Below, in pieces: positions 1,737-53,177 of a DNA stretch of 53,177 bases (position 1 is the first letter of the stretch; every line of letters starts with the position of its first letter). The position numbers and the translations under genes were made by a program. The notes under the pieces were generated by a model. The model did not search any database, was not told where the DNA came from, and saw only the letters and a program-made list of their open reading frames with translations. Source of the stretch: an archaeon (lineage in GTDB: Archaea; B1Sed10-29; WALL01; WAMD01); assembly GCA_024275655.1 (NCBI GenBank), contig JAJRYR010000040.1, forward strand, positions 1 through 53,177. Reading direction: 5' to 3'.

Positions 1737-2897
1737 ATGGACAGCATAGAGGCAATTCCAGCCCAGCCAGGAACTAGGCTTCTAGAACTGGAAAGGAAGA
1801 TAAAAGAGCTGGAAATGGAAAATAGAAGGCTTGAAATAACCAATTATGAACTCACAAATAGGATAAGAAGGCTAGAATCCGAGCTAAAAAAGCTGAAGAG
1901 CGAGCCACTTTTGGTGGGTGTGGTTGAGGAGATTCTATCAAAGGGAAAGGTGATAGTAAAGAGCAGTAATGGTGCTCAATTCCTCGTAAATTCTCTAATA
2001 AACGTTCTGCCTGGGGACAGAGTTGCAATGAATCAACAGAACCTAACAATAGTTAAAAGATTACCCAGGGAAAGAGACAGATTCGTTAAGGCGGCGGAAG
2101 TTATAGAAAGGCCAAGAGTAACATTCGATGACGTGGGGGGATTGGATAGACAAATTCAGGAATTGAGAGAAATCGTGGAACTGCCGCTGAAGAATCCGCA
2201 GATATTTGAGGAAATTGGAATCGATCCTCCAAAGGGCATACTCCTATACGGTCCACCAGGATGCGGTAAGACTCTTCTGGTGAAGGCCCTAGCAAGGGAA
2301 TCAGAGGCTACATTCATAAGAGTTGTGGGATCGGAGCTGGTGAGGAAGTACATAGGAGAAGGTGCAAAGCTAGTGAAGCAGATATTTGAACTAGCCAGAG
2401 AAAAGGCACCCAGCATTCTATTCATAGATGAGATAGATGCCATAGCCGCTAGGAGAATGGAGGAAACAACTGGTGGAGACAGAGAAGTAAATAGAACCTT
2501 GATGCAGCTACTTGCAGAATTGGACGGTTTCAACGAGAGGGGAGAAGTTAGGATAATAGGTGCAACAAATAGAATAGATATCCTGGATCCAGCAATCTTG
2601 AGGCCTGGAAGATTCGACAGGTTGATAGAGGTGCCACTACCAGACGAGAAGGCAAGGGAGCAAATATTTAAGGTCCACACCAGAAGGATGAAGCTAGCAA
2701 AGGATGTAAACCTAAAGAAACTCGCGAAGATGACCGAAGGGGCGAATGGTGCAGAGATAAAGGCGGTCTGCACAGAGGCAGGAATGTTCGCAATAAGGAA
2801 AGGGAAGAAAGAAGTTGGCATGGAAGAATTCCTAGATGCAATAGAGAAGGTTATAGTGTACGCAGAGGAAGGAGAAGAGGCCGTGTACTATACTTAA
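1737..2897 (+). CDS. pan: Proteasome-activating nucleotidase (AAA+ ATPase, Rpt family)
   Basis: N-terminal coiled coil ([18 protein letters not shown]...). Walker [11 protein letters not shown]. Walker [12 protein letters not shown]-terminal ..VYYT fits the HbYX motif. Confidence 0.93.
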
Positions 2898-3292
2898 TCT
2901 AGTAAGAGCCGGCGCTCTATCGCTTCAAGTTCCTCTTCCTTGGAAGTGTGAGGCATATCCATCTCTTCAAAATCCAGGCTGGGCATTGGTTTTCGGGAGA
3001 TCCACACAAGAACAACTTTTCCACCAGTTTCCCTAGGGAGCAAACATTCCATTGCTTTGTTTATTTGTCTTTTGCCGGTGAGCCTAACAAGAAATTCCAT
3101 CGCTAAATCCCTGGCTATTCCAGTCCCAGATAAATGGGAATCGATTGCGGTCATTATGCATGAGAGAACGTGCCTGGGTCCCTTAATGCATCTCGGATTG
3201 ATCAGGAGAAACCCATCCGGGATCTTAGAAAAATCTGGGACCAAAAACTCCCCAAATCCATAGTAAAAGCCATTATATCGGTCAGATATCAT
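2894..3292 (-). CDS. Hypothetical protein
   Basis: 132-aa ORF filling the gap between pan and rps8e; overlaps the pan stop by 4 nt (convergent). No motif recognised with confidence. Confidence 0.45.
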
Positions 3293-3364
3293 AGAAAGGT
3301 TAATAAATAACCTAAATTAAAAATGTTTAGCTCATGATTCTACAATACTTGAGAGGGTGGTAGA

Positions 3365-3748
3365 ATGGTAGTGTATCACGGAAGATCCAAGCGAACCAAG
3401 ACCGGAGCAAAAAGGCATCCATACAAGAAAAAGAAGAAAAAGGCACTCTTGGGTAGGCAGTACATTCCAGTAACTGTGGGAGAGACAGAGAAAAAAATAA
3501 TCAGGGTGATGGGTGGAAACACCAAGGTTAGATTAAAGTCAGTGGAATTTGCAAATGTCTTGGACCCAGAGACAAAGCAATACAAGAAGGTCAAGATACT
3601 CTCTGTCCTGGAGAACACTGCAGATAGAAACTTCGCAAGAAGAAACATAATCACCAAGGGCGCTATAATAGAGACAGAACTAGGAAAGGCAAGGGTAGTT
3701 TCCAGGCCTGGCCAAGATGGAGTAATTAACGCTATCCTAGTAAAATAA
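3365..3748 (+). CDS. rps8e: 30S ribosomal protein S8e
   Basis: GRSKRTKTGAKRHPYKKKKK..., GGNTKVRLKSVEFANV..., RRNIITKGAIIETELGKARVVSRPGQDGVINAILVK are typical S8e blocks. GAGGGTGGT lies upstream of the ATG. Confidence 0.9.
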   Translation: MVVYHGRSKRTKTGAKRHPYKKKKKKALLGRQYIPVTVGETEKKIIRVMGGNTKVRLKSVEFANVLDPETKQYKKVKILSVLENTADRNFARRNIITKGAIIETELGKARVVSRPGQDGVINAILVK

Positions 3749-3787
3749 AACCCAAATTTTTATATCCCAATTCCCTAATTCTCCGTG

Positions 3788-4390
3788 ATGCCAAGGAAAA
3801 CTGTGCAAAGCATATTCAAGTCAAAGCTTGGAATTTCTGGAAGCAAAAAACACATAGATATATTTCTAGAAGAGGAAACTAAGGGAGACAGAATGTCCTT
3901 CGCTAGCATAAGAGACAGAATATCAAATGTTAAACGAAAAATCAGTGAAGAGGGGTTCACCTACAAAAATTTTCATGAGTCCATCAGTAAAAAACCGCAT
4001 GTGACCATGAGGGGACTGTACACTTGGGTTTATCACGCAGACGCGGGGTTAGCAAAAATAGTGGAAAAGGCGCTCAAAAACAAGAGTTTATCAAAGTCAG
4101 ATATCCTAGAATTCAAAAAACACATAAACCAAGCGATTAAAGAACTGGAGAGAGCAAATCAGGAGTACAAAAACATCCAGGCATTCATAAAACCAGATTA
4201 TCCTTATGCCATGGGAATCATAGAAACTCTATCCCTAATGAAGGAAAGGCCCGAGGTGTATGCAAACCTAATTTACGTCTACGCAAAACACGGGAAGGTA
4301 GAGCCTAGCTACATTGAAGAGAATGTTGATAAGCTATTTTCGCTCAAAAAGACCAAAAGCAAGAAACAGAAGAAAAGAACTAAACCCTAA
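3788..4390 (+). CDS. Hypothetical protein with Lys-rich C-terminal tail
   Basis: 200-aa ORF (GTG at 3785, ATG at 3788), tail KKTKSKKQKKRTKP. No recognisable domain. Confidence 0.5.
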   Translation: MPRKTVQSIFKSKLGISGSKKHIDIFLEEETKGDRMSFASIRDRISNVKRKISEEGFTYKNFHESISKKPHVTMRGLYTWVYHADAGLAKIVEKALKNKSLSKSDILEFKKHINQAIKELERANQEYKNIQAFIKPDYPYAMGIIETLSLMKERPEVYANLIYVYAKHGKVEPSYIEENVDKLFSLKKTKSKKQKKRTKP

Positions 4391-21948: not shown

Positions 21949-22024
<76 letters not shown>

Positions 22025-22087
22025 TTGGGGCTTTATGCCTCAACCCCAACAACTTAACATACCTCACGTACTGGGGATAACTTGGGG

Positions 22088-22420
22088 ATGACCGTGATTA
22101 ATGGGAGAAAAATAATTACACTGTGTGGATCAACCCGGTTCAAAAAAGAGTTTGAAGAAGTAAACAAAAAATTGACTCTAGAAGGCAACATCGTCATAAG
22201 CGTTGGTGTCTTCGTTCATAACGAAGAAGAAAAGGAGGAATTGCTATCAAAAAAGAAACTGCTGGACGAAATCCACTTGGATAAGATAAGGTTGGCCGAT
22301 GAGATATTCGTGATCAACAAAGATGGATACATTGGGGAGTCAACGAAGAAAGAAATCGAATTTGCAAAAAAACTCGGAAAACCCATACGGTTCTTGGAAC
22401 CTGACAAAGCACCCCTCTAG
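22088..22420 (+). CDS. Small nucleoside 2-deoxyribosyltransferase-like superfamily protein (hypothetical)
   Basis: IITLCGSTRFKKEFEE...HLDKIRLADEIFVINKDGYIGESTKKEIEFAKKLGKPI is a pattern I recall from small, often phage- or island-borne proteins. Lies between two tRNA genes. Confidence 0.45.
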   Translation: MTVINGRKIITLCGSTRFKKEFEEVNKKLTLEGNIVISVGVFVHNEEEKEELLSKKKLLDEIHLDKIRLADEIFVINKDGYIGESTKKEIEFAKKLGKPIRFLEPDKAPL

Positions 22421-22445
22421 CTCCAAATACTCTTACGACAGATGT

Positions 22446-22518
22446 GGGCCCGTAGCTCAGTTGGAAGAGTGCTCGCTTGGCGTGCGAGAGGTCCCGGGTT
22501 CGAATCCCGGCGGGTCCA
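22446..22518 (+). tRNA. tRNA-Ala (anticodon GGC)
   Basis: Acceptor GGGCCCG/CGGGTCC with the G3:U70 Ala identity pair, anticodon stem CTCGC/GCGAG with loop TTGGCGT, T arm CCGGG-TTCGAAT-CCCGG. Confidence 0.92.
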
Positions 22519-22725
22519 CTATACACAAAGGATCAACTGGAGGTGTTAACTTGGCAAGCGATGGAGAAAAGAGGAAAAAGAAAAGGCAGCAAAGGTGGAA
22601 ATGGAAGAAAAAGAAGAGAAGGAGAATGAAGAGACAGTTGAAGAGAAGAGCAGGTAAACTATAATATCTAAACCCCACGAATCTTCGTTTTGCCTATTGC
22701 CAATCATATTTACTTAATTGTACGG

Positions 22726-22810
22726 GCGGGGGTGCCGGAGCCTGGCCAAACGGGCAGGATTGAGGGTCCTGTGGCGTAGGCCTGCGCGGGTTCAAATCCC
22801 GTCCCCCGCA
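22726..22810 (+). tRNA. tRNA-Leu (anticodon GAG), class II with long variable arm
   Basis: Acceptor GCGGGGG/CCCCCGC, anticodon stem CAGGA/TCCTG with loop TTGAGGG, variable arm TGGCGTAGGCCTGC, T arm GCGGG-TTCAAAT-CCCGT. Confidence 0.9.
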
Positions 22811-22876
22811 TATGCCACTTCATGTGGCATCGGGGATGTGAATCCCCACATCGCCCGCAAGCCGGCGCAACGGCTT

Positions 22877-22897
22877 GTTTAAATCCCGTCCCCCGCA
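22877..22897 (+). repeat. Direct repeat of the tRNA-Leu 3' end (20/21 nt identical to 22790-22810)
   Basis: GTTTAAATCCCGTCCCCCGCA versus GTTCAAATCCCGTCCCCCGCA. The 66-nt spacer (22811-22876) holds three hairpins. Confidence 0.85.
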
Positions 22898-22952
22898 CTT
22901 GGCTTAGATAGCACAAAAATTTAAATATCCAGGGCCCAAAAAATAACACCGC

Positions 22953-23026
22953 GGGCCCGTAGTCTAGTTGGTTAGGACGCCACCTTGACGCGGTGGAGAT
23001 CCCCGGTTCGAATCCGGGCGGGCCCA
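22953..23026 (+). tRNA. tRNA-Val (anticodon GAC)
   Basis: Acceptor GGGCCCG/CGGGCCC, anticodon stem CCACC/GGTGG with loop TTGACGC, T arm CCCGG-TTCGAAT-CCGGG. TTTAAATA at 22920-22927 lies about 26 nt upstream. Confidence 0.92.
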
Positions 23027-25811: not shown

Positions 25812-26504
25812 TTACCTCTGCTCTTCAAAAGCCTCCCAGAATTCTTGCCAGCTCATTTCCCCAGGTCTCTTTCCGTTCCAGAATTTTTTCCTCCTATGGG
25901 AGAACGCATTTTTCACAAACTCCTCAAACTCCGGATTGTGTGGGTTCCTCTTTCTGAACAGAACAATCCTAGATGCAACTGGTGGCTGTGGCTGGAAAGC
26001 AGATCTAGGGACCTTCCAATCCAGTATTGGTTCAGAATAAAACTGGGCTATCACCGAGACCACCCTGTAATGGTCCTGCCCAGGTTTGGCCACGAGTTTC
26101 TGTGCAAACTCCTCCTGGCAGATTATGACTCCCAGCTCAAAATCTGTTCTCAAGAGCTTTAGAGTGATTTCCCTGGAAAGGGAATAGGGAATGTTGGAAG
26201 CGAACTTGTTAAAGTGGAATTGTGAAAGATCAACATCCAAGGCATCTCCTAGAATGAGTTCAACGCCATCCAGCTCTCTAGTCAAGATGTTGTACAAAAG
26301 TCTATCCTTTTCAATTGCAATGACCTTTGCCTTCTTCACCAGCTCCCTAGTCAAAAAACCCAACCCAGGACCTATTTCCAAAACCGTGTCTCCTGGAACC
26401 AGTTCCAGAAGTGAGGCTTCCCTCTGCAAAATCTTCTCGTCCACCAAAAAATACTGATCCAAAGCTTTATTGGGCTTGATGGGATACTTAGATATGTCCA
26501 ACAT
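25812..26504 (-). CDS. rsmA: 16S rRNA (adenine1518/1519-N6)-dimethyltransferase KsgA/Dim1
   Basis: LDQYFLVDEKIL, SAM motif VLEIGPGLGFLT, SNIPYSLS. Confidence 0.85.
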   Translation of the reverse strand: MLDISKYPIKPNKALDQYFLVDEKILQREASLLELVPGDTVLEIGPGLGFLTRELVKKAKVIAIEKDRLLYNILTRELDGVELILGDALDVDLSQFHFNKFASNIPYSLSREITLKLLRTDFELGVIICQEEFAQKLVAKPGQDHYRVVSVIAQFYSEPILDWKVPRSAFQPQPPVASRIVLFRKRNPHNPEFEEFVKNAFSHRRKKFWNGKRPGEMSWQEFWEAFEEQR

Positions 26505-26505
26505 C

Positions 26506-27081
26506 TCAGAACCTTCTCTTTCTATGCCTTTCTCCTGCCTCAGGGGGCCTCACAAATATGTAGTACTTGGCCTCCCCTCTAAGTTCCTCAAGCACCTTCT
26601 CCTTTATCATCCTAACTGGGTCCGGAAGAAGCTTAACTCTGGAGGACAAGTCCTGGAAGCTCTCAAAGGGCTTCTTTTCCCTCTCTTCCAGTATCTCCTG
26701 CATATGCTTCTTCCCAATGCCTGGCAAAAGTTCTAGGGAGTGCATTCTAATGGTAACTGGCCCTGCCTTGTTGAAAAACTCGACAAACTTTTTCTCATTT
26801 TCAAGTATGATGGTCTCAATTGCCTTTTCCAATTCCTCTTGAGCAGTGTGAGTGAGCTTTGAATATGGAAGTCTACCCTTTATCCTCTCAATCTCTGGTC
26901 TCTTATCTGGACCAATATAAACCTTCTGCTGAAGAAGTAGATTGATACCTCTCCTAGGCACCAATTCAAGCAAGGTAAAATACCGAGTACCCAAAGCTTG
27001 CGCTATTGGTTCGTTCGAATATGAGTTCGGATATCCTGTTGGCAGGAAATCCAATACTATCGCGTAATCCTCCTTTGGCAT
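26506..27081 (-). CDS. DUF655 family protein (OB fold + helix-hairpin-helix)
   Basis: MPKEDYAIVLDFLPTGYP... and LELLPGIGKKHMQEILEERE (HhH). Sits in the conserved position between rpo4 and ksgA. Confidence 0.7.
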   Translation of the reverse strand: MPKEDYAIVLDFLPTGYPNSYSNEPIAQALGTRYFTLLELVPRRGINLLLQQKVYIGPDKRPEIERIKGRLPYSKLTHTAQEELEKAIETIILENEKKFVEFFNKAGPVTIRMHSLELLPGIGKKHMQEILEEREKKPFESFQDLSSRVKLLPDPVRMIKEKVLEELRGEAKYYIFVRPPEAGERHRKRRF

Positions 27082-27101: not shown

Positions 27102-27431
27102 TTATAGGTACTCGGCAACAAGATCTGCCACCTGCTTGTACACGCTGGACTTTATGTCCTTAACGTCCTCCAGTATAACCTTAACATCCTCCTCGTCTTT
27201 TGGAAGATTGTTAACGATCATGACAGCATAATCCTCAGGGATACCAAGCTCAACCAGCTTGGCAGTTAACTCCCTAGCTTTCTGGACTCCCAGCTTTCCA
27301 AACTCCTTTGCATGCTCCAAAGCCCTTCTTTGCTCGTAGGTGAGCTCCTTCTCCTTCTCTACTTTTTTCAACAGGTTTGCAACTTCTGGGAGGGAAACTG
27401 GTTTCTCCTCCTTTACTTCCTTCCCAATCAT
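27102..27431 (-). CDS. rpo4: DNA-directed RNA polymerase subunit Rpo4 (RpoF)
   Basis: 109 aa: PVSLPEVANLLKKVEKEKELTYEQRRALEHAKEF....ARELTAKLVELGIPEDYAVMIVNNLPKD. The ATG overlaps the rpl21e stop. Confidence 0.75.
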   Translation of the reverse strand: MIGKEVKEEKPVSLPEVANLLKKVEKEKELTYEQRRALEHAKEFGKLGVQKARELTAKLVELGIPEDYAVMIVNNLPKDEEDVKVILEDVKDIKSSVYKQVADLVAEYL

Positions 27432-27727
27432 CTGCTCACCTCTACCCTCTTCAAATGCACAGGCGCAACAATCAATGTCTTCATCATTCCACCATCCCTA
27501 ACCTGAACCAAGTATGCCTCTCCCTGCTGACCAATAACCTTGCCTGTTCTCCCGTGGAACTTTGGATCTGGCATACCCTCATGAACGCTTGGGTCTATCT
27601 TTATTGCCACTGTCTCTCCAACATCAAACTTCTGAAGGAACTTTGTAACTGGTGGCATCCCCCTCTGCCTGGGAGACTTTCTAAGCTTCTTCCTTGTTCC
27701 TCTCCTGGAACCTCTGCTCTTCTTCAT
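27428..27727 (-). CDS. rpl21e: 50S ribosomal protein L21e
   Basis: MKKSRGSRRGTRKKLRKSPRQRGMPPVTKFLQKFDVGETVAIKIDPSVHEGMPDPKFHGRTGKV. The ATG at 27727 is preceded by GGAGGGT and preferred over the ATG at 27766. Confidence 0.9.
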   Translation of the reverse strand: MKKSRGSRRGTRKKLRKSPRQRGMPPVTKFLQKFDVGETVAIKIDPSVHEGMPDPKFHGRTGKVIGQQGEAYLVQVRDGGMMKTLIVAPVHLKRVEVSR

Positions 27728-27887
27728 CTTCAACCCTCCTATATACTGTAGACTAGCACAAACCAATTCCTTGCAGGTTTATTTTGCTAAAACTTATTTA
27801 AAAACCTAGCCCCAAAGCCAAGAAAAGTAATCTATCCCCAGTTAAAACTGGAAAAAAGTTATTTAAACCCCAACACAAAATTAGCAC

Positions 27888-28220
27888 ATGGAAGACGACG
27901 AGATAGTTCACTTCATAATAATATTCTTCGCTCTGGGAGTGGTATTCAGGACATATTTCCCAGCATTATTTGACCTAGTTCTTCTCAGCATGGCTGTTGT
28001 GGGAACTGGCTACTTCGTCCTGGGCGTGGTCTCTAGAGTACTTTCTGGATTATCCGGCAAGAACTTCGTTTGGGCGAAGGACTGGTGGCACGGACTTGCC
28101 ATCTTGTTGATGGTTGGCCTGATCTTTGGTAGGATGGATCTAGCAGTTGGTACTGTAATGTGGGTTGTAAACGCTGCCTTGAGAGCAGTTCTCTGGGTCT
28201 TAACTGGTTTCGGGGGTTAA
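27888..28220 (+). CDS. Small membrane protein (3 predicted TM segments), hypothetical
   Basis: 110-aa hydrophobic ORF. TTATTTAAA lies about 25 nt upstream, so the transcript is probably leaderless. Confidence 0.5.
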   Translation: MEDDEIVHFIIIFFALGVVFRTYFPALFDLVLLSMAVVGTGYFVLGVVSRVLSGLSGKNFVWAKDWWHGLAILLMVGLIFGRMDLAVGTVMWVVNAALRAVLWVLTGFGG

Positions 28221-28229
28221 CTGGAAAAG

Positions 28230-28256
28230 GTATTTAAATACCCTGGTTTATAAATA
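28230..28256 (+). promoter_or_regulatory. Two TATA-like boxes upstream of the half-TBP gene
   Basis: Palindromic GTATTTAAATAC (28230-28241) and TTTATAAATA (28247-28256). GGGGTGG at 28271-28277 lies before the ATG at 28283. Confidence 0.35.
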
Positions 28257-28282
28257 GCCTAGAAATTTCTGGGGTGGTTTAA

Positions 28283-28555
28283 ATGGTAGAGATAACCTTC
28301 AGAATAGAAAACATTGTGGCTTCTGCAAACCTGAATGCTGATATAGACCTATATGCTCTAGCCAGGGAGTTAGACAATGTTGAGTATGAACCTGAGCAGT
28401 TTCCAGGTGCAATCTTAAAGCTAAAGGATCCAAAGACTAGTCTGCTAGTATTCAAGAACGGTAAGATGATATGTACTGGAGCAAAGAGCGAAAAAGAGGT
28501 TAGGAGAGCAATAGAGAATGCAGTAAAACTAATAAGGCCATACATAAGGGACTAG
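28283..28555 (+). CDS. Single-repeat TATA-box-binding-protein-like protein (half-size TBP)
   Basis: 90 aa: RIENIVASANLNADIDLYALARELDNVEYEPEQFPGAILKLKDPKTSLLVFKNGKMICTGAKSEKEVRRAIENAV is one complete TBP repeat. The flanks are taken up by a promoter region and the 3' end of a convergent gene. Confidence 0.8.
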   Translation: MVEITFRIENIVASANLNADIDLYALARELDNVEYEPEQFPGAILKLKDPKTSLLVFKNGKMICTGAKSEKEVRRAIENAVKLIRPYIRD

Positions 28556-28570
28556 GATCAACCCCTAACC

Positions 28571-29011
28571 CTAAAAGTTTCCAAATATCCCAAAGGGCTG
28601 AACATCCTCCTCTTTCTTCTCTTCTTCCCTTTCCTTCTCCAGCTCCCCTGGTTTAAAGTGATATAGGACTATCTCGTTCACTGCCTTCTTCACTATGTCC
28701 TCTGGCTCCTCATCAGGGTATATAAGAACCTTAAATACATGCTTCTTCAGCCAGAACTCTGCCAGGCTTATCCCCAAGTTGAAATCCAATCCTAACTTCT
28801 CATCGTCTCCTAGCTGGTAGGGGATCACTGCAAAATCGCAGTTTTTATCCTCCAAAAGAATCCTAGCGGCCATCGGAGCAGAATCTATTGTGGGGATCCT
28901 GACCCGCTTTATCTCTAGAGTGGATATCTCCTTCTCAAACTCCTTCTCCACTAAATCGCATACGTCTTCCTGGCCAACCACTTGAATTATCCCAACCCTC
29001 ATCTCTCTCAC
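28571..29011 (-). CDS. Archaeal riboflavin synthase-like (lumazine-synthase fold) protein with acidic C-terminal tail
   Basis: VGIIQVV...VRIPTIDSAPMAARILLEDKNCDFAVIP resembles the MJ1184-type riboflavin synthase pattern (V.VPG..dlP.a...L.e...cD.V). Coupled to ribK. Divergent, hence low confidence. Confidence 0.4.
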   Translation of the reverse strand: MREMRVGIIQVVGQEDVCDLVEKEFEKEISTLEIKRVRIPTIDSAPMAARILLEDKNCDFAVIPYQLGDDEKLGLDFNLGISLAEFWLKKHVFKVLIYPDEEPEDIVKKAVNEIVLYHFKPGELEKEREEEKKEEDVQPFGIFGNF

Positions 29012-29385: not shown

Positions 29386-29451
29386 GCTACCACCTAGTAA
29401 TTTTATGGGAAAGGGATTTAATAAGAGTTAATCATAAAATAAGGAAGTGTT

Positions 29452-29524
<73 letters not shown>

Positions 29525-29546
29525 CTTCGCAAAAGGAGGTAATCAA

Positions 29547-29822
29547 ATGGTTGGAAACTGGAAGATAAAACTGAGACCGATAATCTCAATTCTGCTATTG
29601 ATTGTTTTTCTGATAGTGGCCGTAACAGGAATAGGATTAGCACAAGCACCATCTGGCAAAATCGCTCATGCAACAGCTTGGACTTTCCTAGGAATGGACA
29701 AACCTACACTAGAAAGTGCGCACACTCTTTCAGGAATTGCAATGATCGTCCTAGTAGTAGTCCACCTAGCGATAAACCTGGACATGCTAGTCAATGAGCT
29801 AAAAGTGTTGACAAGAAAGTAA
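29547..29822 (+). CDS. Small two-TM membrane protein, DUF4405-like
   Basis: The ATG at 29547 lies 7 nt after GGAGGT. The track ORF start at 29475 lies inside the tRNA. Pattern TM-loop-W..(x)..AH..SG-TM-VVHL. Confidence 0.5.
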   Translation: MVGNWKIKLRPIISILLLIVFLIVAVTGIGLAQAPSGKIAHATAWTFLGMDKPTLESAHTLSGIAMIVLVVVHLAINLDMLVNELKVLTRK

Positions 29823-29874
29823 CCTTTTTAATCCCTTTGTCCCTAATTACTGTGGGTGTTCGAAATGAGCGCCG

Positions 29875-30753
29875 GTGGACGTCTTTGCATGGATCGAATC
29901 TAGCATAGGGAAAACCCCAGTTGTAACCCTAGAGAAATCTGGTTCTGGTTTGGTTGTTGCAAAACTTGAGAGAGCAAATTTAACTGGGAGCATAAAGGAC
30001 AGGCTAGTTCTGGAAGCTTTGAAGGAGGCAATAGACCTAGGTCATGACTCAGTAGTAGAAGCGACCACTGGGAACACAGGTATAAGCCTAGCAGCCATAG
30101 GATCTGCCCTGGGACTCCATATAACAATAGTTATGCCCAAGATAATGACCAAAGAAAGACAGAAACTTATTAAGCATTATGGGGCAGAGCTTGTTCTAGC
30201 CCAGGATATGCCACACGCCAGAAACCTGGCACTTGAAATCTCTGAAAAAACTGGTGCGTACTTCCTAGATCAGTTCAACAACCCAGCAAATCTCAGGGCT
30301 GGGAAAAAACTAGGGATGGAGATTCTAGACTGGTTGAGAAAATCTGGCTTGAAACCGGACAACCTAGTGATGAGTGTCGGCACTAGTGGATCGCTGGTTG
30401 GCAGTGCTATAGTGCTAAAAGGTGCGTTCCCTAGGATGAAAGTGTACGCTACCAACCCGATTGGGCAGATAGACGGAACAAATGACGGCGTGGAAACCCC
30501 GTTCCTAAATCTAGTAGAGCTAGACGGAAAGATAGAGGTAACCCGCAAAAATGCAATAGAAACTGCTAGAGCTCTAGCAAGAACTGGGCTTGGAGTAGGA
30601 ATTTCTAGTGGTGCCAATGTGTATGCCGCAAACCAGCTACCAGGGACAACCATAACTGTACTACCGGATTCTTCTGAGAGGTATTTCTCCACGGAGCTGT
30701 TTGAAGAAAACCTTTTTATGCCGAGAAGTGATACAACAATTCAGGAGGTGTAG
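29875..30753 (+). CDS. Cysteine synthase / PLP-dependent beta-substituting enzyme (CysK/CBS family)
   Basis: IGKTPVV, PLP-lysine motif LTGSIKDR, TTGNTGISLA, GTSGSLVG. GTG start. The stop lies 2 nt before cysS. Confidence 0.8.
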   Translation: MDVFAWIESSIGKTPVVTLEKSGSGLVVAKLERANLTGSIKDRLVLEALKEAIDLGHDSVVEATTGNTGISLAAIGSALGLHITIVMPKIMTKERQKLIKHYGAELVLAQDMPHARNLALEISEKTGAYFLDQFNNPANLRAGKKLGMEILDWLRKSGLKPDNLVMSVGTSGSLVGSAIVLKGAFPRMKVYATNPIGQIDGTNDGVETPFLNLVELDGKIEVTRKNAIETARALARTGLGVGISSGANVYAANQLPGTTITVLPDSSERYFSTELFEENLFMPRSDTTIQEV

Positions 30754-30755
30754 AG

Positions 30756-39919: not shown

Positions 39920-40161
39920 AAAAAGTGATCTTGATAACCATCGTTGGAGGATTAATCGCATTGATGGTATCTTTACTGATAGTGGTATCCATGGAAAAAA
40001 CAGCGAGCCCAGTCCCGGTGATTTACAACCACACGTTGGAACCTGAAAAGGAATCTGTTCCCGAGCCCGCACTGACGTTCAACGAAACTGCGCCACCCTC
40101 AAGCAAATTGAATCCCGATGAAGATGCGCCTCCAATGATAGCGGAGGTGCCATCAAAATGA
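39916..40161 (+). CDS. Small N-terminally anchored protein with Pro-rich tail (hypothetical)
   Basis: MKKVILITIVGGLIALMVSLLIVV then ...SPVPVIY..PEKESVPEPA..APPSS..DAPPMIAEVPSK. ATGA overlaps at both ends. Confidence 0.5.
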   Translation: MKKVILITIVGGLIALMVSLLIVVSMEKTASPVPVIYNHTLEPEKESVPEPALTFNETAPPSSKLNPDEDAPPMIAEVPSK

Positions 40162-43100
40162 GATGGAGTTTGTTATTCACTGTAATGTTGATCTCGCTAT
40201 CTGTGGCAGTAACAATCACAAATTCTGGAAGTTACGACACGATCAACGCCAAGCACTACAAGATAGATGCCGTGGTGGATCCAACTCTCTCCAACTTTGG
40301 ACAGTTGACAAACTGTTATGCAAACGACTACAACCCGACACAGGTATTGAGGTCTTCTGCAGACGGTCACTGCTTGTTCATGAGGGTGTACAAGGCCTCT
40401 CTTCCAGGATCTGGATGGTATGCATTAGAAACCGCGCTTGGAGGAGGATCCAGGTACATAGAAGAGGACGGTCCTTTCCGAGTAAAGCTGGTTTTCACGT
40501 ATGCGGACGGTGCCGTGAACATAACCTATTATTTTTACGATGATTTCTTCGTCCAAAGGTTCACATCCCAGGGATATTCCGGTAGCTACAATGATGGATT
40601 TGCAAATGCTTTTGCAGTGAATGATCTAACTAACACCGTTGGGCCAGACTCCTGGGGATTGAACTACGTGGAAGGTTCTTCAACCACATCTCCAATAGAT
40701 ACCAGCACCAACTCCGCAACCACGAGTTATGACACTTTTGCCTTGGGTGGCCAAACTGCATGGACCAGCTGGTATTCGAGTAGTCCATCTGGCCTACTAC
40801 TGGGGGCAGTATATCCGCCAATACCTGCTAGTGCTACAGACTATGCTAGCTACGCTTATGATAGAGAGGACACCACCACAACCTATGACCAGTTCAGTGC
40901 AGGGCACACCAACACAAATGGGTATGTATCCGTTGACTTCGTGTCTGGCATATTCCAGTACGGGGTGGGGAACTCTGCAGATTTGACCAGAGGGTTATTT
41001 TTGCATTACACGAATCCTGCCATTTTGACCTGTGTAGAGGATTGCGACTCTGCAGATTTTGATAGCATGGAATTCATATACTCCGTAATGCCCGCCCCTG
41101 GAACAAGGGTTAATGTAACAAAGTTCAGCGTTACTGGAAATGCAAACTGGATAAACAATCAAACTGTCTATGTGAAAGTTTGGAATGCTGTGGGATCCGA
41201 GGTTTACAAGTCCACCGATGGTGTAAACTGGACATTATATCTAAACTCCTCACAGGTGCAACAAGAGGACAATTACATAATATTCGGCGATGAAATTGCA
41301 CCGGGACAAACTGTTTATTACTTAATACGAAAATCTAGGGGAACAGGTGTAACTGTTCCCAAAGAGGTTATTCCCTCGATGGATCCTCGCCCCTTTTTGG
41401 ACTCTGGCGATACCGCGTATCCAAAAGCCATTGTAATAGCAAGTGATGGATCAATCGTGGACGATGCGACTGTTAAAGCACTAATAACCGGTCCAACTTC
41501 GGCAAGTTTGGAGTTGATGTTCAATAACGACACTCTCGCATACAATGGAACGCTGGGAACCACAGGATATCCCGCAGGAGTGTACACTGAGACAGTTTAC
41601 GCAAACAAGACAATTCCCAGAGACACGAATATCACGGAGTGTAGCTCCTACTGGGGGTTTGACTGTGGGTATGGTCCTCCGGAAACAGGGGATAACACCT
41701 TTGACACGTGCCCCACAGGAACTGGAAACGACGAATCTGTTGAGGGTATTTGGATAAACGCAACTAGAGTTTATCCTGGGGATACAGTGGAGGTCACATG
41801 CGAATTTGACACATACGATACTCTTTATGATCAAGAGTACATATGGTACTACAACGGAACTGGATGGAGAAAACTCTGGGAAGGAGATGTTGGGGCAAAC
41901 GTAGTTGCAAACAAAACAGTAACATTCACGGTGGACAATGTAACAGGAACTCACTGGGTAAGGTGTTCCATAAGCTATTCCCCGCTAGACCAACCGTGTC
42001 AGGACTCTGGATCATGGTACGATAACGATGACCTGGCTTTTGAGGTAGTGCAGCCAAACGTGAACATTTCCAATCACACCCACTTCCACATATATCCAGG
42101 CGAGGGTGTTTCTGTGTACTCCATCCCATTTGGAGACAGTGAAAACAAAACATTCCTAGAAAACACACATATTGTGGCGGCACTGGACAGTAGAAAACTA
42201 GTGTACTACGTGTTCCAAAAGGACACAGGGGTGGAGTACACCTTCAAGAATCCAGAATACCTGCACTCCCTTGGGGGGCTGGGAATCTCAAGTGAAGGGG
42301 GTTTGGAAGGCGGATCCACCTTCTCATGGGATGCCGGTGAAAACTTAACTAGTGGAACAGTGATTGCAAATACAAGTGTTGTAGAACCACTGGGCAAAAA
42401 AGTTTGTTTTGTGTGCTACACTGCTGGATCACCAAGCGCCACATATGAATTGCCATACATACAAGCACTGGAGGCTCTGGGCTACACTGTGGAATACAAC
42501 ACTCCCACATGTAACTATGATTATACTGATATACAATATGGAACTGCAGACTTTAGTGGTTATGATTTTTGGGCCCACAGCTGGATCTATGTAAACAGTC
42601 CTGGAACTCTGGCAAATGCAAAAACCAAGTACGTAGATGAGCTGGGCCAGAACGAGTTGATACTCGGACCGGACGCCACGTATTTAGCAGATTTTGGATA
42701 CGCAAACGTAAACGAGAGAAGATACTATCCTTCAGCGATTGCACAAATAAAAACAAACGACGGGTTCTTACCAGAAGAGGATTATGATATCGGAGAAACT
42801 GTCAAGCTAACGAACGATCCATCAAGCAGGTACCAGTATGTAACTAGAGAAGGCAATCTGATCCCAGAGGTAACTCCAGTATTAACAGCTGGTGGTTCAA
42901 CGGACTTCGCAACCTCTGGTTACTACATAAACCAAACTAGTGGGGGGAAGATGATCTACTTTGGAATTGCAGAAGATGCTGTGCAGCAGTTAACAAACTA
43001 CTCCGACAATGAGGATAACGGGCTGGAAGTTCTAGATCACTTCGCAAAATGGGTGGGGGGATCTAGGGTTTACATTCTAGCCAACATAACTTTGAGAGAT

Positions 43101-44480
43101 GAAGACGATGATTACTTGCTGTTCTCACTAACAAACTTTTCATCAAACATTCAGAATATAAGTGACCTGTTGGTTGCGTATTCTGGGAGAGTTGGTTCTA
43201 GCTTGTCAGATGATAGAGTCCATTTGGAAAATGGCAGCGACTGGGCAGTAACTGATCTACCAACGAGACAATGGATCTCCGCAGATGGAAACTATTCCAA
43301 CTTCTACGACAACAGCACCATCGATCCAGAGGATAATGTAACAATATCCTTGGTACGTTGGATATCTGATCCAAGTCCTTACTTCTTCATTAGGAGAAAT
43401 TCTGATTCAGAAATGGGCATGCTAAACTACTCAACATCCGGGCTGTCAAGTAGTTCAAAGTTAGCATACCTCTTCGTGTTTACATTAGGAGATTTCATGT
43501 CTATCGATCAATGGATACTGACTGTAGAACACAACGAACTGCCAATCCCCAACTTCATGACCAGGCCAGCAATCTCCTGGAACCAGTCCAAGCTAGATCT
43601 AGGACCAGTAACCGCAGGGTCCTCTGAATCAAAGAATGTTACCCTTCAATTAACTGGTTGGCACGATAATATCAACATAACAGTAATATCTGGCAATGCG
43701 ACTGATTCGCTAGGCGATTACTTCATAAGTGTTAATCCAACACTTGTTAGTTTGGCAAATGGTGAAATCCAAGTATCAGTAACGTGTAGTCCACCAGCCA
43801 CGCAAGCTACCGGATACTACGAGGTAATTGTTAACGCCAGGTCAAAGAGAAATCCAATAGGAGCCAACCTAACAGTTGGTTGCCAAGTCGGGATTGTAAA
43901 TGCATCCCTAGAGTGGAATCAAACACAGTTGAATCTAGGAAGTGTGTACCAGGGAAGGGAGTCCACTGGCCTAGTTAAAGCTGTTCCATATGAAACCAAT
44001 ACAAATGTAATTTTGGAGCAACTGGGAGGGAACGCGACCTTCATACTCCCAAATGTTACTTACATAAATTCATTATCCAGTTCTCAAGATGTGGAGTTCA
44101 CATGCAAACCATATCCATGGACAGAACCTGGGAACTACTCTGCAATCTGGAACATAAGATCTGATCAACAACCTAGCGGGGACAACTTGACGGTCTTCTG
44201 TGAAGTGAAAAGGGCAAGACAAATTGTTGTGGTTTACACAGATGGAACCTGGGATATATCCCCATTCAATCTAGACGACTGGTTGCTGGGCACTGGAGAT
44301 GTACAATCTGCATTTCCATACTCCTGTGATACCTCAAGTGGAACTGCCTACATCTATTACTACAATATCACAGTAAACCCTAACAAGATAGTGGACAAGA
44401 TAGTATTTAGCGATAATTCTACCAGCGAGCTCCAGCAGATAACCGCGATAACAATGGAGAGAACACCAGGCACATACTAG
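40158..44480 (+). CDS. Giant (1440 aa) secreted protein, probably glycosylated; candidate pilus-associated adhesin or cargo
   Basis: Sec-type signal MRWSLLFTVMLISLSVAVT. Composition rich in Thr/Ser/Asn/Tyr/Gly. Many N-x-S/T sequons. CARDB-like block YPGDTVEVTCEFD. Two tandem ~100-aa Ig-like repeats near the C-terminus. No C-terminal TM segment. Confidence 0.7.
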   Translation: MRWSLLFTVMLISLSVAVTITNSGSYDTINAKHYKIDAVVDPTLSNFGQLTNCYANDYNPTQVLRSSADGHCLFMRVYKASLPGSGWYALETALGGGSRYIEEDGPFRVKLVFTYADGAVNITYYFYDDFFVQRFTSQGYSGSYNDGFANAFAVNDLTNTVGPDSWGLNYVEGSSTTSPIDTSTNSATTSYDTFALGGQTAWTSWYSSSPSGLLLGAVYPPIPASATDYASYAYDREDTTTTYDQFSAGHTNTNGYVSVDFVSGIFQYGVGNSADLTRGLFLHYTNPAILTCVEDCDSADFDSMEFIYSVMPAPGTRVNVTKFSVTGNANWINNQTVYVKVWNAVGSEVYKSTDGVNWTLYLNSSQVQQEDNYIIFGDEIAPGQTVYYLIRKSRGTGVTVPKEVIPSMDPRPFLDSGDTAYPKAIVIASDGSIVDDATVKALITGPTSASLELMFNNDTLAYNGTLGTTGYPAGVYTETVYANKTIPRDTNITECSSYWGFDCGYGPPETGDNTFDTCPTGTGNDESVEGIWINATRVYPGDTVEVTCEFDTYDTLYDQEYIWYYNGTGWRKLWEGDVGANVVANKTVTFTVDNVTGTHWVRCSISYSPLDQPCQDSGSWYDNDDLAFEVVQPNVNISNHTHFHIYPGEGVSVYSIPFGDSENKTFLENTHIVAALDSRKLVYYVFQKDTGVEYTFKNPEYLHSLGGLGISSEGGLEGGSTFSWDAGENLTSGTVIANTSVVEPLGKKVCFVCYTAGSPSATYELPYIQALEALGYTVEYNTPTCNYDYTDIQYGTADFSGYDFWAHSWIYVNSPGTLANAKTKYVDELGQNELILGPDATYLADFGYANVNERRYYPSAIAQIKTNDGFLPEEDYDIGETVKLTNDPSSRYQYVTREGNLIPEVTPVLTAGGSTDFATSGYYINQTSGGKMIYFGIAEDAVQQLTNYSDNEDNGLEVLDHFAKWVGGSRVYILANITLRDEDDDYLLFSLTNFSSNIQNISDLLVAYSGRVGSSLSDDRVHLENGSDWAVTDLPTRQWISADGNYSNFYDNSTIDPEDNVTISLVRWISDPSPYFFIRRNSDSEMGMLNYSTSGLSSSSKLAYLFVFTLGDFMSIDQWILTVEHNELPIPNFMTRPAISWNQSKLDLGPVTAGSSESKNVTLQLTGWHDNINITVISGNATDSLGDYFISVNPTLVSLANGEIQVSVTCSPPATQATGYYEVIVNARSKRNPIGANLTVGCQVGIVNASLEWNQTQLNLGSVYQGRESTGLVKAVPYETNTNVILEQLGGNATFILPNVTYINSLSSSQDVEFTCKPYPWTEPGNYSAIWNIRSDQQPSGDNLTVFCEVKRARQIVVVYTDGTWDISPFNLDDWLLGTGDVQSAFPYSCDTSSGTAYIYYYNITVNPNKIVDKIVFSDNSTSELQQITAITMERTPGTY

Positions 44481-48798: not shown

Positions 48799-49344
48799 AT
48801 GACCATGATAAAATTGGAGGACTTCCACAGGTTAATCTCTCCCAGACCAACAGTTCTCGTTACCACTGTGGATGAGAAGGGGAGGGAGGATGTAGCTGCA
48901 TTCTCATGGGTAATGCCAGTTAGTTTTGATCCTCCATTGGTGGCCATAGCAATAGGTCCAAATAAGCACTCTTACTGGAACATAACAAGAATAAACGAAT
49001 TCGTGGTAAACATCCCAACAGAGAAAATGCTTGAAAAGGTTTGGATTGCCGGTGGTCCATGGGATCCAAAACAGAGCAAAATAGAGAAGGCGAAGCTAAA
49101 GACAAAACCAAGTGAGCTAGTTAGGCCCCCTAGGTTGGCGGACTGTCCAGTGAACATAGAATGCATGGTAGAGAATGCAAGAAAGGCTGGGGATCACGTT
49201 ATAGTTATAGGGAAAGTTGTGAAGATACACGTAAAAGAAGATGCAATAGATGAAAGAGGGAATTTGAAAGTGGATGTTGTTAGGCCACCACTGCATGTGG
49301 CTGATAACTTATTTGCTTTCCCCTATGTTACAAAGTCCGTCTAA
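48799..49344 (+). CDS. Flavin reductase-like FMN-binding domain protein
   Basis: RLISPRPTVLVTTVDEKGREDVAAFSWVMPVSFDPPLVAIAIGPNKHSYWNI..EFVVNIP. Confidence 0.8.
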   Translation: MTMIKLEDFHRLISPRPTVLVTTVDEKGREDVAAFSWVMPVSFDPPLVAIAIGPNKHSYWNITRINEFVVNIPTEKMLEKVWIAGGPWDPKQSKIEKAKLKTKPSELVRPPRLADCPVNIECMVENARKAGDHVIVIGKVVKIHVKEDAIDERGNLKVDVVRPPLHVADNLFAFPYVTKSV

Positions 49345-52300
49345 CTCCCTTCTTCATTATGTATACGGAAGCCAATCCCAGGACGATTGCCATTATGTAC
49401 CAGACCAGATCAGACTCTGGAACAGTTGGCACCACTGGTGGAACTGGTGATTCCTTCTCCGCTTTTTCCCATGGCTTTTCTCCATGAACTGCACTTGGCT
49501 GGAGCAGTGGTGGATCAGGCATTCCAGTGACTGCATTGAAACCGTTGGTCTTGAACTCGTTGTTTAACTCTATTGGCTGACCATTCACAAAGACATAGTT
49601 GTTTGTATCTGGGTTGTACTGTATGCTTCCACCAGTTCCCTTCAGCCAGGTTATCAACGCATCCTCAAGCAAGGTGTTACCCTTTCCATCCTTGATCGTC
49701 ATCAAGGTTCTTCCAAGCTCATCAACTCTAGTGGATATCTCCCTCAAGAGATATGCATCAGTGTGTGGTTTGCCTTCCTCGTATATCCTTATTGTTCCAT
49801 CTGGGCTGATCTCCACTTGATCTCCTCTGTACGTTTCCTTCTGTCCATTGTAGTAGAGGTCAAAGTATGTTTGGTTCCCTACTTTATAGAATCTCCAACC
49901 AACCTTCTCGTTGTCTTGGATCTTTCCGTCTCCATTCAAGTCCTTGTATCCAGACACTGCGGTGATTATACCAAGCTTATCGGCCCCTGGTATTCTGGTG
50001 TTGGTTGCATCTATACCCAGGATATTTCCTAGTTCGTCCACTGCTGTTGGGCTCTGGCCATCCAGGCTTTGGAATGGTTTTGTTCCAACTAAATCTCTCC
50101 ATTGCAGACCAGTTATGCTCGGCTTAAAGTATCTTGGAAGTATGTATATGGTATCTCCTTTCCTTACAATCACTCCTCCAGCGAATACGGCTGATCTAAA
50201 GTTCAGCTCCTCTGTCTTGTTTTCAAGGTTCGTGAAGATTAACTTTCCAGACCTGGTTAACCAAACTGGCTGTTCTGTCTCTTCGTATCCTCCATCATTT
50301 CTATCGAATTCGAGTCTCACTTTGCCATCTATTGCTGCGGATGAGTAAATGCTTCCCTCATCTAGGTTGATCACTCTCAGGTTTCCAAACACTCTCTCCA
50401 GATCAGTGAAGTTCAGTGAATCAAACTTTGTAGTTATGTCCTGGTTGAAGGTGGGCTGTAGGTTGTCTGGAGATACAGAGAACACTGCACAGTCTGAGGA
50501 ATCAGAGACGTTCACGTAAACTGCAGTATTTGGTATGATCATAGCCGGCAACTCTGTATCAATCCATTTGAAAGGTATTAGTGCATTTGTTATGGTGGTG
50601 TTTCCATAGGTTAGTGTGTTTCCTTGTATGTCCACGCACTCTTGTATAGTCTCCTCATCTGTCAATCCACACATATGGAATGGGAAGGCATTTGCCAGGA
50701 AGTCTATTGTTGCATCGATAATATGCAAGTAGTATATGTCCCGCAATGCCACTCTTCCAGTTGCATTGTAGAATTCTCCATGAATGTGAAGCTGCTCTTG
50801 ATCCACATTGATTGGAGAGCTCATATTTTCAAATCCTTTCAGGAGATCCTCCACAGGCAATTGATCCAAACCAGGCAAATCCTTGAGAGCTCCTGCCTGC
50901 TCCTGCTCTGCTTGGATAACACTTGGATCCCTTATCTGCGTGCCTGCAATGATTATGAAGTTCCTCTCATCACAGGTTAGAAGCTCATTCAAACATCTGT
51001 TGGTCTTCTCCAGTTTACCCTCGAAGAGCTTTATCCCTCCTCCTGGGGTTGGGATACCTCCCTCAAGGACAATCATATCCACAACTCCAAGAGCAAAAGA
51101 TACTGGAGCCAATACTCCTGAGTAATCCATAACTGTTTGTGCAACTCCGCTGGCTACCATGTACGTTGACATAGCTGCCAATTCTCCTTGGCATTTTGCA
51201 CAGACCTGCTCACAGGGTGGTCTCTCACACTTTCCAGTTCTCACACACTCCTCCAATGCTCTCATGTCTGTTGCCTTCGCGGTTACCAACTGCTCTGCAC
51301 CTGTTGACATAGCCCTGGACAAGCCAGTAATGAGTGTGGCCCCAATCACTGTTTTAAATCTTGGAACGTTAGGCCACAAATAAATTATACTTGCAGTGGT
51401 GACTGCTTGTGACAAGAATCCGAAGTCAGAGAGCTTTTCTGCAAATGTCCAGGTTATCGGGAATTGCGTTTTTATTTGGTCGGGGTTTCCATATATGTAG
51501 CCGTATATGTCTGCACCACTCGTGATCAAAGCCACACTTGTTAGAAGGGTGTTGTTACCAACTGGCTTCATTGTTGTTGGATCCTCCAGAACGCTTATTC
51601 CGCTTTGCCTCCAGTTTGCCATCCTCATGAGATATCCGTTGTTGGTCTTCACTATTCTAGTTATTCCAGTTGGCTTGCCCTCTTCCTCAATGCGTATCAC
51701 TGATGCATAAGCACTTGGATTGAAATCGTATCCAAATATCAGGTAATCACCAAACTCTGAGTACTTGCCAGCCAAAACTGGGTCTATACCTAAACTAAGC
51801 AGGAAGCTGGCTAACTCTCTTGCCCCCAGGCTACCAAATGCCCCAGCAGAGTACATTCCAGGAATTGAACTTGGAGTCCCCTTGACCAGGATGTAGCTCT
51901 GCTTAGTGAAAAGATCCCCGGTGGTTGTGGGATCCCACTCCAGGGTGAATCCTGGTGGCGACATCTCCAGATAACCATTCATCATAGTTAGAATAGAGAA
52001 GGTCTGCAATCCCCAGGCCAATGCAGTTATTGGCCTTCCTACATAGTACAATCCTTTTAGATAACTTCTCAAAAATGTTCCTGCTAGGCTTATTGTTCTG
52101 GCCCTCAGTACAGTAGATATGTAATCACTAGGTATCAATCCATATTTGCCAACTAGCCACTCCCCTACTACAGATTTGGGTGCAGAACTCGCTACTATTC
52201 CTGAAAAAGCCTTCGCGACTTCTATATCTGACGGTGAACCATAGATTCCTAGCTTTGTTATCAACGCCTCATTTTCCAAAGCAACATCATATGCAGCTGA

Positions 52301-53177
52301 TTTTTTACTCAATAAAGTTGCAAGATCATTTAAATCATCTTGATAGGTTTGCCTGAACTCCTTAATTTTGTTTAGTCTCTTTTCTTTGTCTTCTATCTCA
52401 TCAATTTTCTTTAACTCTGTTTTTAATTTACTTAATTTACTCTTGATCTCGCTATTTGTCTTGATTTCACTCAAAATGCTATCTAATGACTCTTTTACAG
52501 AATCATCCAAATTATCAACAACTATATCTCCAAATCTTCCCTGCCAACTTTTAATCAAATTCCTCGCCTGACTCTCTGCTACGGGTGATCCTTGAGTAGC
52601 TAGTATAGAAACGACAGTGCTTTCATCTCCGCTCACAAGTGCAGCAACAAATGTTCTTTTTTGACTATTATCCAACTGCTGGACATAACCCCTGATGTTA
52701 TCTGGGAGATTATTAATTACCTTATCTATTTTGTTGTTGTCTGCATTATCTATCAAGATCTCCATAATTTTCTTTTTATTCGTTGTAATTGCTATATCCG
52801 TCAACCCATCGATCTCATTTACTGCTCTCTTAACATCAGAAATATCATCACTGCCCCCAATTATAAAGTTCTTCAATTTCTTCATGCTCATTCGTAACTT
52901 ATCCTTCGGGGCCTGCAACACCTTCTCCTTGTTAGTTATAAAATCTCCACCCTTTCTGAAACCCCTAAAGATATTCACTATCCCACCAATCATGAAGGCG
53001 GCTTGGGCAACGGCCTCAAACTGGGCCAGATTCTTTAACTGGGACATGAAATACATGTAGGTTTTTGGTATGACAAAGATCTGGGAACCAGCTGGAGCAG
53101 CTAAGGAAACAACATACTTGTGGCTTCTTATCCTGGACATCCCAATGTCAACGCTTCCAAACGGATCCCCTGCGTCC
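49328..53177 (-). CDS. Giant protein (>1282 aa; N-terminus outside the window) with internal hydrophobic segments and a C-terminal TM anchor, hypothetical
   Basis: The frame stays open from the ATG at 53140 to the window edge (..DAGDPFGSVDIGMSRIR..). The C-terminus PVPPVVPTVPESDLVWYIMAIVLGLASVYIMKKGVRRTL is a Pro-rich stalk, a TM segment and a basic tail. Cys cluster CVRTGKCERPPCEQVCAKC. Confidence 0.7.
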   Translation of the reverse strand, partial: DAGDPFGSVDIGMSRIRSHKYVVSLAAPAGSQIFVIPKTYMYFMSQLKNLAQFEAVAQAAFMIGGIVNIFRGFRKGGDFITNKEKVLQAPKDKLRMSMKKLKNFIIGGSDDISDVKRAVNEIDGLTDIAITTNKKKIMEILIDNADNNKIDKVINNLPDNIRGYVQQLDNSQKRTFVAALVSGDESTVVSILATQGSPVAESQARNLIKSWQGRFGDIVVDNLDDSVKESLDSILSEIKTNSEIKSKLSKLKTELKKIDEIEDKEKRLNKIKEFRQTYQDDLNDLATLLSKKSAAYDVALENEALITKLGIYGSPSDIEVAKAFSGIVASSAPKSVVGEWLVGKYGLIPSDYISTVLRARTISLAGTFLRSYLKGLYYVGRPITALAWGLQTFSILTMMNGYLEMSPPGFTLEWDPTTTGDLFTKQSYILVKGTPSSIPGMYSAGAFGSLGARELASFLLSLGIDPVLAGKYSEFGDYLIFGYDFNPSAYASVIRIEEEGKPTGITRIVKTNNGYLMRMANWRQSGISVLEDPTTMKPVGNNTLLTSVALITSGADIYGYIYGNPDQIKTQFPITWTFAEKLSDFGFLSQAVTTASIIYLWPNVPRFKTVIGATLITGLSRAMSTGAEQLVTAKATDMRALEECVRTGKCERPPCEQVCAKCQGELAAMSTYMVASGVAQTVMDYSGVLAPVSFALGVVDMIVLEGGIPTPGGGIKLFEGKLEKTNRCLNELLTCDERNFIIIAGTQIRDPSVIQAEQEQAGALKDLPGLDQLPVEDLLKGFENMSSPINVDQEQLHIHGEFYNATGRVALRDIYYLHIIDATIDFLANAFPFHMCGLTDEETIQECVDIQGNTLTYGNTTITNALIPFKWIDTELPAMIIPNTAVYVNVSDSSDCAVFSVSPDNLQPTFNQDITTKFDSLNFTDLERVFGNLRVINLDEGSIYSSAAIDGKVRLEFDRNDGGYEETEQPVWLTRSGKLIFTNLENKTEELNFRSAVFAGGVIVRKGDTIYILPRYFKPSITGLQWRDLVGTKPFQSLDGQSPTAVDELGNILGIDATNTRIPGADKLGIITAVSGYKDLNGDGKIQDNEKVGWRFYKVGNQTYFDLYYNGQKETYRGDQVEISPDGTIRIYEEGKPHTDAYLLREISTRVDELGRTLMTIKDGKGNTLLEDALITWLKGTGGSIQYNPDTNNYVFVNGQPIELNNEFKTNGFNAVTGMPDPPLLQPSAVHGEKPWEKAEKESPVPPVVPTVPESDLVWYIMAIVLGLASVYIMKKGVRRTL

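Follow-up and report, generated by a model that had tools for sequence, protein, structure and literature searches.

The window, by which we mean the whole 53,177-nt stretch of archaeal DNA analyzed here, encodes a single lobe of the TATA-binding protein (TBP) next to the divergent L21e-Rpo4-DUF655-KsgA gene cluster. The genes and sequence elements at this locus are as follows:

25812–26504 (−), rRNA adenine dimethylase KsgA/Dim1 (PF00398, E = 9.6e-37)
26506–27081 (−), DUF655 protein (PF04919, E = 1.3e-67)
27102–27431 (−), RNA polymerase subunit Rpo4/RpoF of the Rpb4 family (PF03874, E = 3.9e-06; 27.6 bits against a cut-off of 25.6)
27428–27766 (−), ribosomal protein L21e, first gene of the divergent neighbor cluster (PF01157, E = 8.5e-36)
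27888–28220 (+), small hydrophobic ORF of 110 aa between the L21e and TBP genes, without a Pfam match
28233–28240 (+), TATA-like box 1, TTTAAATA, 50 nt 5′ of the ATG (sequence motif)
28247–28254 (+), TATA-like box 2, TTTATAAA, palindromic, 36 nt 5′ of the ATG (sequence motif)
28271–28277 (+), Shine-Dalgarno-like GGGGTGG, 5 nt 5′ of the ATG (sequence motif)
28283–28555 (+), single-lobe TBP gene, 90 aa plus stop, with the elements S1-H1-S2-S3-S4-S5-H2 (ORF, Pfam, AlphaFold, and Foldseek)

The TBP-lobe ORF is bounded by an ATG start and a TAG stop. An in-frame TAA lies directly 5′ of the ATG (28280–28282), so that an N-terminal extension is impossible, and a convergent 146-aa ORF ends at position 28571, 15 nt past the stop codon; together, these two boundaries leave no room for a second repeat. 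The Pfam TBP profile (PF00352) matched the protein once, at aa 6–85 against profile positions 2–83 of 85, with a score of 106.7 bits against a cut-off of 22.9 (E = 5.6e-31), well above chance. Instead of the two tandem repeats of a TBP, the 90-aa protein therefore has one, with stop codons on both sides, and when all 53,177 bases of the window were searched by tblastn with the protein, no second TBP repeat was detected (next best E = 0.7). The sequence-only reading had claimed that the ORF corresponds to exactly one TBP repeat and that there is no space for another, and both claims were borne out. Its description of the flanks, with two TATA-like boxes and GGGGTGG in the 62 nt upstream and a convergent gene 15 nt downstream, was also right in all coordinates and motifs.

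The 62-nt spacer 5′ of the gene (28221–28282) has counterparts in related genomes. TATA-like elements precede most of the 20 orthologous genes compared, the motif cTTTATAAA is repeated 5′ of orthologues L005–L013, and GGGGTG, GGAGG, or GGTG occurs in orthologues at the same spot as GGGGTGG in the window. As judged from these motifs, the TBP-lobe gene has its own conserved promoter-like and putative Shine-Dalgarno elements. A scan for bacterial sigma-70 promoters found nothing; the sigma-70 model is bacterial, and the host is an archaeon. In the window at large, TATA-like 8-mers lie approximately 25–37 nt 5′ of many start codons (e.g., upstream of 8059, 13714 [−], 21217 [−], and 48799), and this spacing suggests that the mRNAs of the window may be mostly leaderless, from which the TBP gene, with its Shine-Dalgarno-like GGGGTGG, differs. 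The window also contains four tRNA genes (Glu-ttc, Ala-ggc, Leu-gag, and Val-gac) within about 1.1 kb (21949–23026) and two very large ORFs without a Pfam match at E ≤1e-5, at 40158–44480 (+, 1440 aa) and 49328–53140 (−, 1270 aa).

The same 90-aa protein, identical in sequence and with the same neighbors, is encoded in the NCBI metagenome-assembled genome (MAG) GCA_053993375.1 (locus L001) and in a Logan contig from SRR33939669 (L002), each with about 93% DNA identity to the window. Against each of these two strains, the gene differs at 24 positions over 273 nt, and all of these differences (24/24) are synonymous; in more distant orthologues, pN was 0.035–0.15 per site, with pS saturated at 0.67–0.99. 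Logan contigs derive from a k = 31 de Bruijn graph that does not resolve repeats and holds each 31-mer only once (PMC12424806). If a second repeat were hidden in the gene, it would have to show up in the contig or interrupt it, but one-repeat genes are crossed without a break by Logan contigs 913 bp and 59.8 kb long. Furthermore, the co-assembly SRP141559_co1 gave one-repeat (L003) and two-repeat (L012 and L017) genes alike, the one-repeat gene was also present in a single-cell genome (L007), and a lenient tblastn search near 63 one-repeat loci found no degraded second repeat (0/63; only noise, with E ≥17). Some relatives do have exact inter-lobe repeats of 71–98 nt, of a type able to confuse de Bruijn assemblers. 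Nevertheless, the recovery of the one-repeat gene from independent assemblies and the purely synonymous strain differences make it hardly credible that short-read assembly merged the two repeats of a tandem gene into one, or that the gene is a decaying remnant; the two scenarios by which the sequence-only reading could have been overturned, an assembly deletion of a second repeat and a fragment under relaxed selection, thus fail. The feature at 28283–28555 is an intact, stand-alone, one-repeat TBP gene under strong purifying selection.

The AlphaFold model of the protein, built with 54 homologues, had a pLDDT of 93.1 and showed one TBP lobe with its elements in the order S1-H1-S2-S3-S4-S5-H2. 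All 44 Foldseek matches in the PDB at E ≤0.001 were TBP chains, with a TMq of 0.82–0.90 and an rmsd of approximately 1.0–1.6 Å over 80–88 columns. In these structural alignments, the identity to lobes of solved archaeal TBPs was 41–45%. In phmmer comparisons, the solved archaeal TBPs were matched at E = 1e-39 to 1e-45, and both of their lobes were matched about equally (83/68 bits for Sulfolobus, 73/65 for M. jannaschii, and 69/65 for P. woesei).

Across the 54 aligned one-lobe proteins, N10, V12, F40, F57, T65, and the stirrup V33-E-Y-E-P-E-Q-F-P-G42 were invariant, and this stirrup is identical to the C-terminal-lobe motif of solved archaeal TBPs; the one-lobe subfamily designated group B in the genome scan has Ser in place of this Thr. 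By alignment and from what is known of TBP structures, we take F40 and F57 to be the DNA-kinking pair, equivalent to the intercalating Phe99/190 and Phe116/207 of yeast, and N10 and T65 to be the central Asn and Thr (yeast Asn69/159 and Thr124/215). On the same grounds, the E-P-E of the stirrup (E36 and E38) corresponds to the acidic stirrup that contacts TFB/TFIIB. The invariance of the DNA- and TFB-contact residues indicates that each chain is a complete, selection-maintained half of a predicted DNA- and TFB-binding saddle. Against the NCBIfam equivalog and subfamily models for TBP, the cut-offs of which are 181–347 bits, the one-lobe protein scores about 100 bits (99.8 bits at best, against a cut-off of 270), with half of each model covered. 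The consequence for annotation is that at least several NCBI copies of the one-lobe gene carry the name “hypothetical protein,” and the score shortfall may lie behind this naming.

The one-lobe protein belongs to a widespread family. A protein search returned 808 relatives, many of which were 88–103 aa long and 66–99% identical, and many of the short ones came from Micrarchaeota, Diapherotrites/Iainarchaeota, or unclassified archaea. A scan of species-representative genomes gave 301 loci, and the best 80 of these were analyzed. About 60 of the 80 carry a one-repeat ORF of 88–136 aa, counted from the first ATG, in Micrarchaeota and Iainarchaeota (DPANN), and about 20 carry a two-repeat TBP, mostly of 180–229 aa; at one further one-repeat locus (L009), the ORF is 177 aa long, with an N-terminal extension that is not TBP. 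No genome among the best 80 of the 301 loci had both a one-repeat and a two-repeat gene. One family member lies on a single contig of 1.17 Mb, essentially a whole DPANN genome. When the large contigs with one-lobe genes (1.17, 1.08, 0.69, and 0.45 Mb) were compared with the best 120 of 7,995 matches to a two-repeat profile, none of these contigs had a two-repeat TBP among them, which rules out no more than a TBP of the clade type with a score of 278 bits or above, since a divergent one would escape. Two one-lobe subfamilies, recognizable by KLK-PKTS...CTGAK and MRLKDIGTT...CSGAK, occur in different genomes. Two one-lobe loci were found in the MAG JAZDKC01 (L057 and L077); these are nearly identical and probably represent co-binned strains. 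A search for a viral origin found no relatives of the one-lobe protein on viral contigs.

On clustering at 50%, a few representatives of the one-lobe family remained in a set of 6,309 TBP-like proteins. Other architectures were also seen. Five metagenome proteins of 272–289 aa have three TBP repeats (P0121, P0131, P0132, P0134, and P0135), and three representatives have four matched TBP stretches (P0241, P0249, and P0279); most of these three- and four-repeat proteins are on short contigs, and they could be real or assembly expansions. Many Micrarchaeota TBPs, of both one and two repeats, have Lys/Ala/Pro-rich tails (L022 at 2854–3975; P0205, P0234, P0120, P0054, and P0122–P0129), either N-terminal and of about 45 aa or C-terminal, histone-H1-like, and of about 140 aa; the window protein has no such tail. 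Five Thermofilum proteins of 148–153 aa that are named TATA-box-binding protein (P0031, P0032, and P0034–P0036) begin inside the first repeat (MREFPGL...), which reflects either mis-called starts or truncated first lobes.

The genomic position of the one-lobe gene connects it to the two-repeat TBPs. In the window, the gene adjoins L21e-Rpo4-DUF655(-KsgA) divergently, and this arrangement is repeated at one-repeat loci; the family of the intervening small ORF (family 9) occurs at the same position in L003–L011 and L072, and L083 has a 106-aa ORF at the position matching that of the 110-aa ORF. Related lineages show the same synteny where they have a two-repeat TBP (L012, L017, L056, L062, L064, L065, L070, L071, and L080), and so do three more two-repeat TBPs from separate look-ups (P0209, P0200, and P0130, the last on a contig of 719 kb). 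This shared position indicates that the one-lobe gene is the positional orthologue of the two-lobe TBP of the clade, and not a paralogue inserted elsewhere. An Iainarchaeota one-lobe TBP (L043, 2983–3273) lies between NurA-HerA-like genes and a Rad50-like gene, and this differing context means that the one-lobe form is present at more than one type of locus. An assignment of L043 to an Iainarchaeota two-repeat context through its HerA-like ATPase family was dropped, the true context being NurA-HerA-TBP-Rad50. Directly beside the TBP locus, gene content varies at the strain level: the window (29386–30755) has tRNA-Ala(cgc) at 29452–29525 and a PLP-dependent enzyme at 29875–30753, and L001 (1454–3131) instead encodes a ParE toxin and an acetyltransferase and has an ORF of 63 aa.

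Every lobe of all Micrarchaeota and Iainarchaeota TBPs, whether one- or two-repeat, has FPGAI and LLLFKNGK in common, whereas canonical archaeal TBPs have FPGL(V/I) and LLIFSSGK at these sites. In four two-repeat TBPs (L012, L015, L017, and L022), the two lobes are 75–83% identical to each other, against 44–53% in Sulfolobus, Methanocaldococcus, and Pyrococcus, and 71–82% identical to the one-lobe proteins. Their lobes share exact DNA matches of 78–98 nt (71–98 nt with L080 included), and the inter-lobe pS in near-symmetric TBPs was only 0.22–0.47, while orthologues of different species were saturated. The exact stretches are consistent with either intragenic gene conversion or several recent re-duplications of one-lobe genes; by either route, near-identical lobes within one protein imply that either position of the saddle can be filled by what is essentially one lobe. 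The sequence-only reading had proposed asking by phylogeny whether the protein groups with N- or C-terminal repeats. In a neighbor-joining tree of lobes (100 bootstraps, 85 columns, deep nodes unsupported), the question could be put, but neither answer applied: the one-lobe proteins grouped with both lobes of the TBPs of the clade, and the two lobes of L022 paired with each other (80% bootstrap) next to a one-lobe protein. The one-lobe state is probably clade-specific and secondary, and not a relic of a pre-duplication TBP, a polarity that is weakly supported.

In comparison with canonical archaeal TBPs (S. acidocaldarius 1MP9, M. jannaschii 2Z8U, and P. woesei 1AIS/1PCZ), the one-lobe protein is alike in repeat sequence and lobe fold, shares the Phe pair, the central Asn/Thr, and the EYEPEQFPG stirrup, and within the clade has the same genomic position. 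It differs in that a canonical TBP consists of two fused, diverged lobes, whereas the window protein has one lobe per polypeptide and would need a non-covalent exact homodimer to form a saddle. Also close to it are the near-symmetric TBPs with two repeats in Micrarchaeota and Iainarchaeota (L012, L015, L017, L022, P0222, and P0225), which share the locus, the FPGAI.../LLLFKNGK motifs, and 71–82% identity, but the lobes of which are joined covalently by a short basic linker. Among known single-lobe proteins, Halobacterium TbpA is also a lobe that clusters with genuine TBP lobes; it is, however, one of several TBP paralogues beside full-length TBPs, non-essential, and confined to a few halophiles (PMC3597702), unlike the one-lobe protein, which occurs at the main TBP locus in about 60 species-level genomes of two DPANN phyla. 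The monopartite proteins of Thermococcales (P. furiosus NP_578195, 82–136 aa) resemble the window protein as stand-alone TBP-lobe folds of ~90–100 aa (PMC3597702). On the published description, we set this group apart: its members, of ~95 aa, are highly diverged, with very weak similarity to TBP, form a separate sequence cluster, and occur beside a normal TBP (PMC3597702), whereas the window protein is a near-canonical lobe by its Pfam match and its identity to archaeal lobes. Single-lobe archaeal versions are also mentioned in passing by Ravarani et al. 2020 (PMC7221094). A literature search for half, monopartite, or homodimeric TBPs in DPANN returned only Brindefalk 2013 and the remark of Ravarani 2020, an absence that is no proof of novelty. 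Single-lobe archaeal TBPs are therefore already known; in the literature searched, neither the DPANN family nor its location at the TBP locus nor its near-symmetric fused relatives were described.

We consider it probable that the gene encodes a functional one-lobe TBP that acts as a symmetric homodimer at the main TBP position of the clade. Homodimerization is inferred from the positional orthology with two-repeat TBPs and from the natural near-symmetric two-repeat relatives, and the binding of TATA and TFB and the status as sole TBP are likewise predictions. The S1 strands of two copies would join to give a saddle of ten strands with perfect symmetry, in which four identical phenylalanines would serve to bind the TATA box and bend it. 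The saddle would offer two identical acidic stirrups, TFB could dock on either, and the BRE-TFB contact alone would fix the direction of the promoter. Bell and colleagues are said to have reported in 1999 that archaeal TBP binds TATA in both orientations and that the TFB-BRE contact sets polarity, and a saddle with two identical TFB-competent stirrups would be compatible with such a mechanism. No signal of a shift to palindromic TATA boxes was found among the few TATA-like boxes of the window, which are mostly TTTAAATA or TTTTTAAA and too small a sample; the predominant TTTAAATA is of the ordinary asymmetric type, which we count against a symmetric TBP.

An accessory half-TBP, working beside a two-lobe TBP encoded elsewhere as a modulator capping TBP/TFB, as a weak-dimer competitor for TATA, or as a factor for a subset of promoters, would have precedents in Halobacterium TbpA and the Thermococcales proteins, whose coexistence with full-length TBPs (and, for TbpA, dispensability) speaks against a sole homodimeric TBP (PMC3597702). 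In addition, the evidence on co-occurrence spans the best 80 of 301 loci and the best 120 of 7,995 matches. We nevertheless regard this explanation as unlikely, because the one-lobe gene sits at the exact locus of the two-repeat TBP of its relatives, no genome among the best 80 loci has both forms, and the 1.17-Mb contig is without a clade-type two-repeat TBP among those 120 matches. An antagonist, moreover, would not need the full set of DNA- and TFB-contact residues, which is invariant here. The genomes are of about 1 Mb, as judged from single contigs of 1.08–1.17 Mb, and genomes this small are expected to keep few paralogues.

A lone TBP lobe might also serve outside transcription as a generic double-strand module that binds DNA or RNA duplexes, as in RNase HIII and DNA glycosylases, and single TBP lobes elsewhere do bind duplex nucleic acid in such roles (PMC3597702; PMC7221094). 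This is improbable for the window protein, as lobe families other than TBP have diverged much further, whereas the 41–45% identity to bona fide TBP lobes, the retained TBP-specific Phe pair and TFB stirrup, and the location of the gene, at the locus of TBP and next to a gene for an RNA polymerase subunit, all point to a TBP. A heterodimer of two different half-TBPs from two loci, like the split genes of Nanoarchaeum, might be read from the two one-lobe loci of JAZDKC01, but these near-identical loci look like strains binned together, a second half occurred in no other genome among 79, and the two one-lobe subfamilies are not found in the same genomes, so that a heterodimer is very improbable. 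Returning to the symmetric homodimer, we see about an even chance that a broader claim also holds: that the sole TBP of a large Micrarchaeota/Iainarchaeota clade is a one-lobe, exactly symmetric homodimer, a living pre-duplication TBP, with lobes that have repeatedly been fused, separated, and homogenized by gene conversion, in which case promoter recognition in archaea would not depend on lobe asymmetry.

TBP is required for the initiation of transcription in archaea and eukaryotes, and the pseudo-symmetry of its two lobes is the textbook argument for its origin by duplication of a homodimeric ancestor. To our knowledge, no natural homodimeric TBP has been characterized. A near-canonical one-lobe TBP at the TBP locus in dozens of species, together with near-symmetric fused sisters, makes the ancestor hypothesis testable with natural proteins. 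The questions that this opens are whether a symmetric saddle binds TATA, whether TFB and BRE alone set direction, and what the asymmetry of the lobes contributes. If the one-lobe protein is indeed the sole, homodimeric TBP of its clade, it would be a living form of the TBP postulated at the origin of archaeal and eukaryotic transcription.
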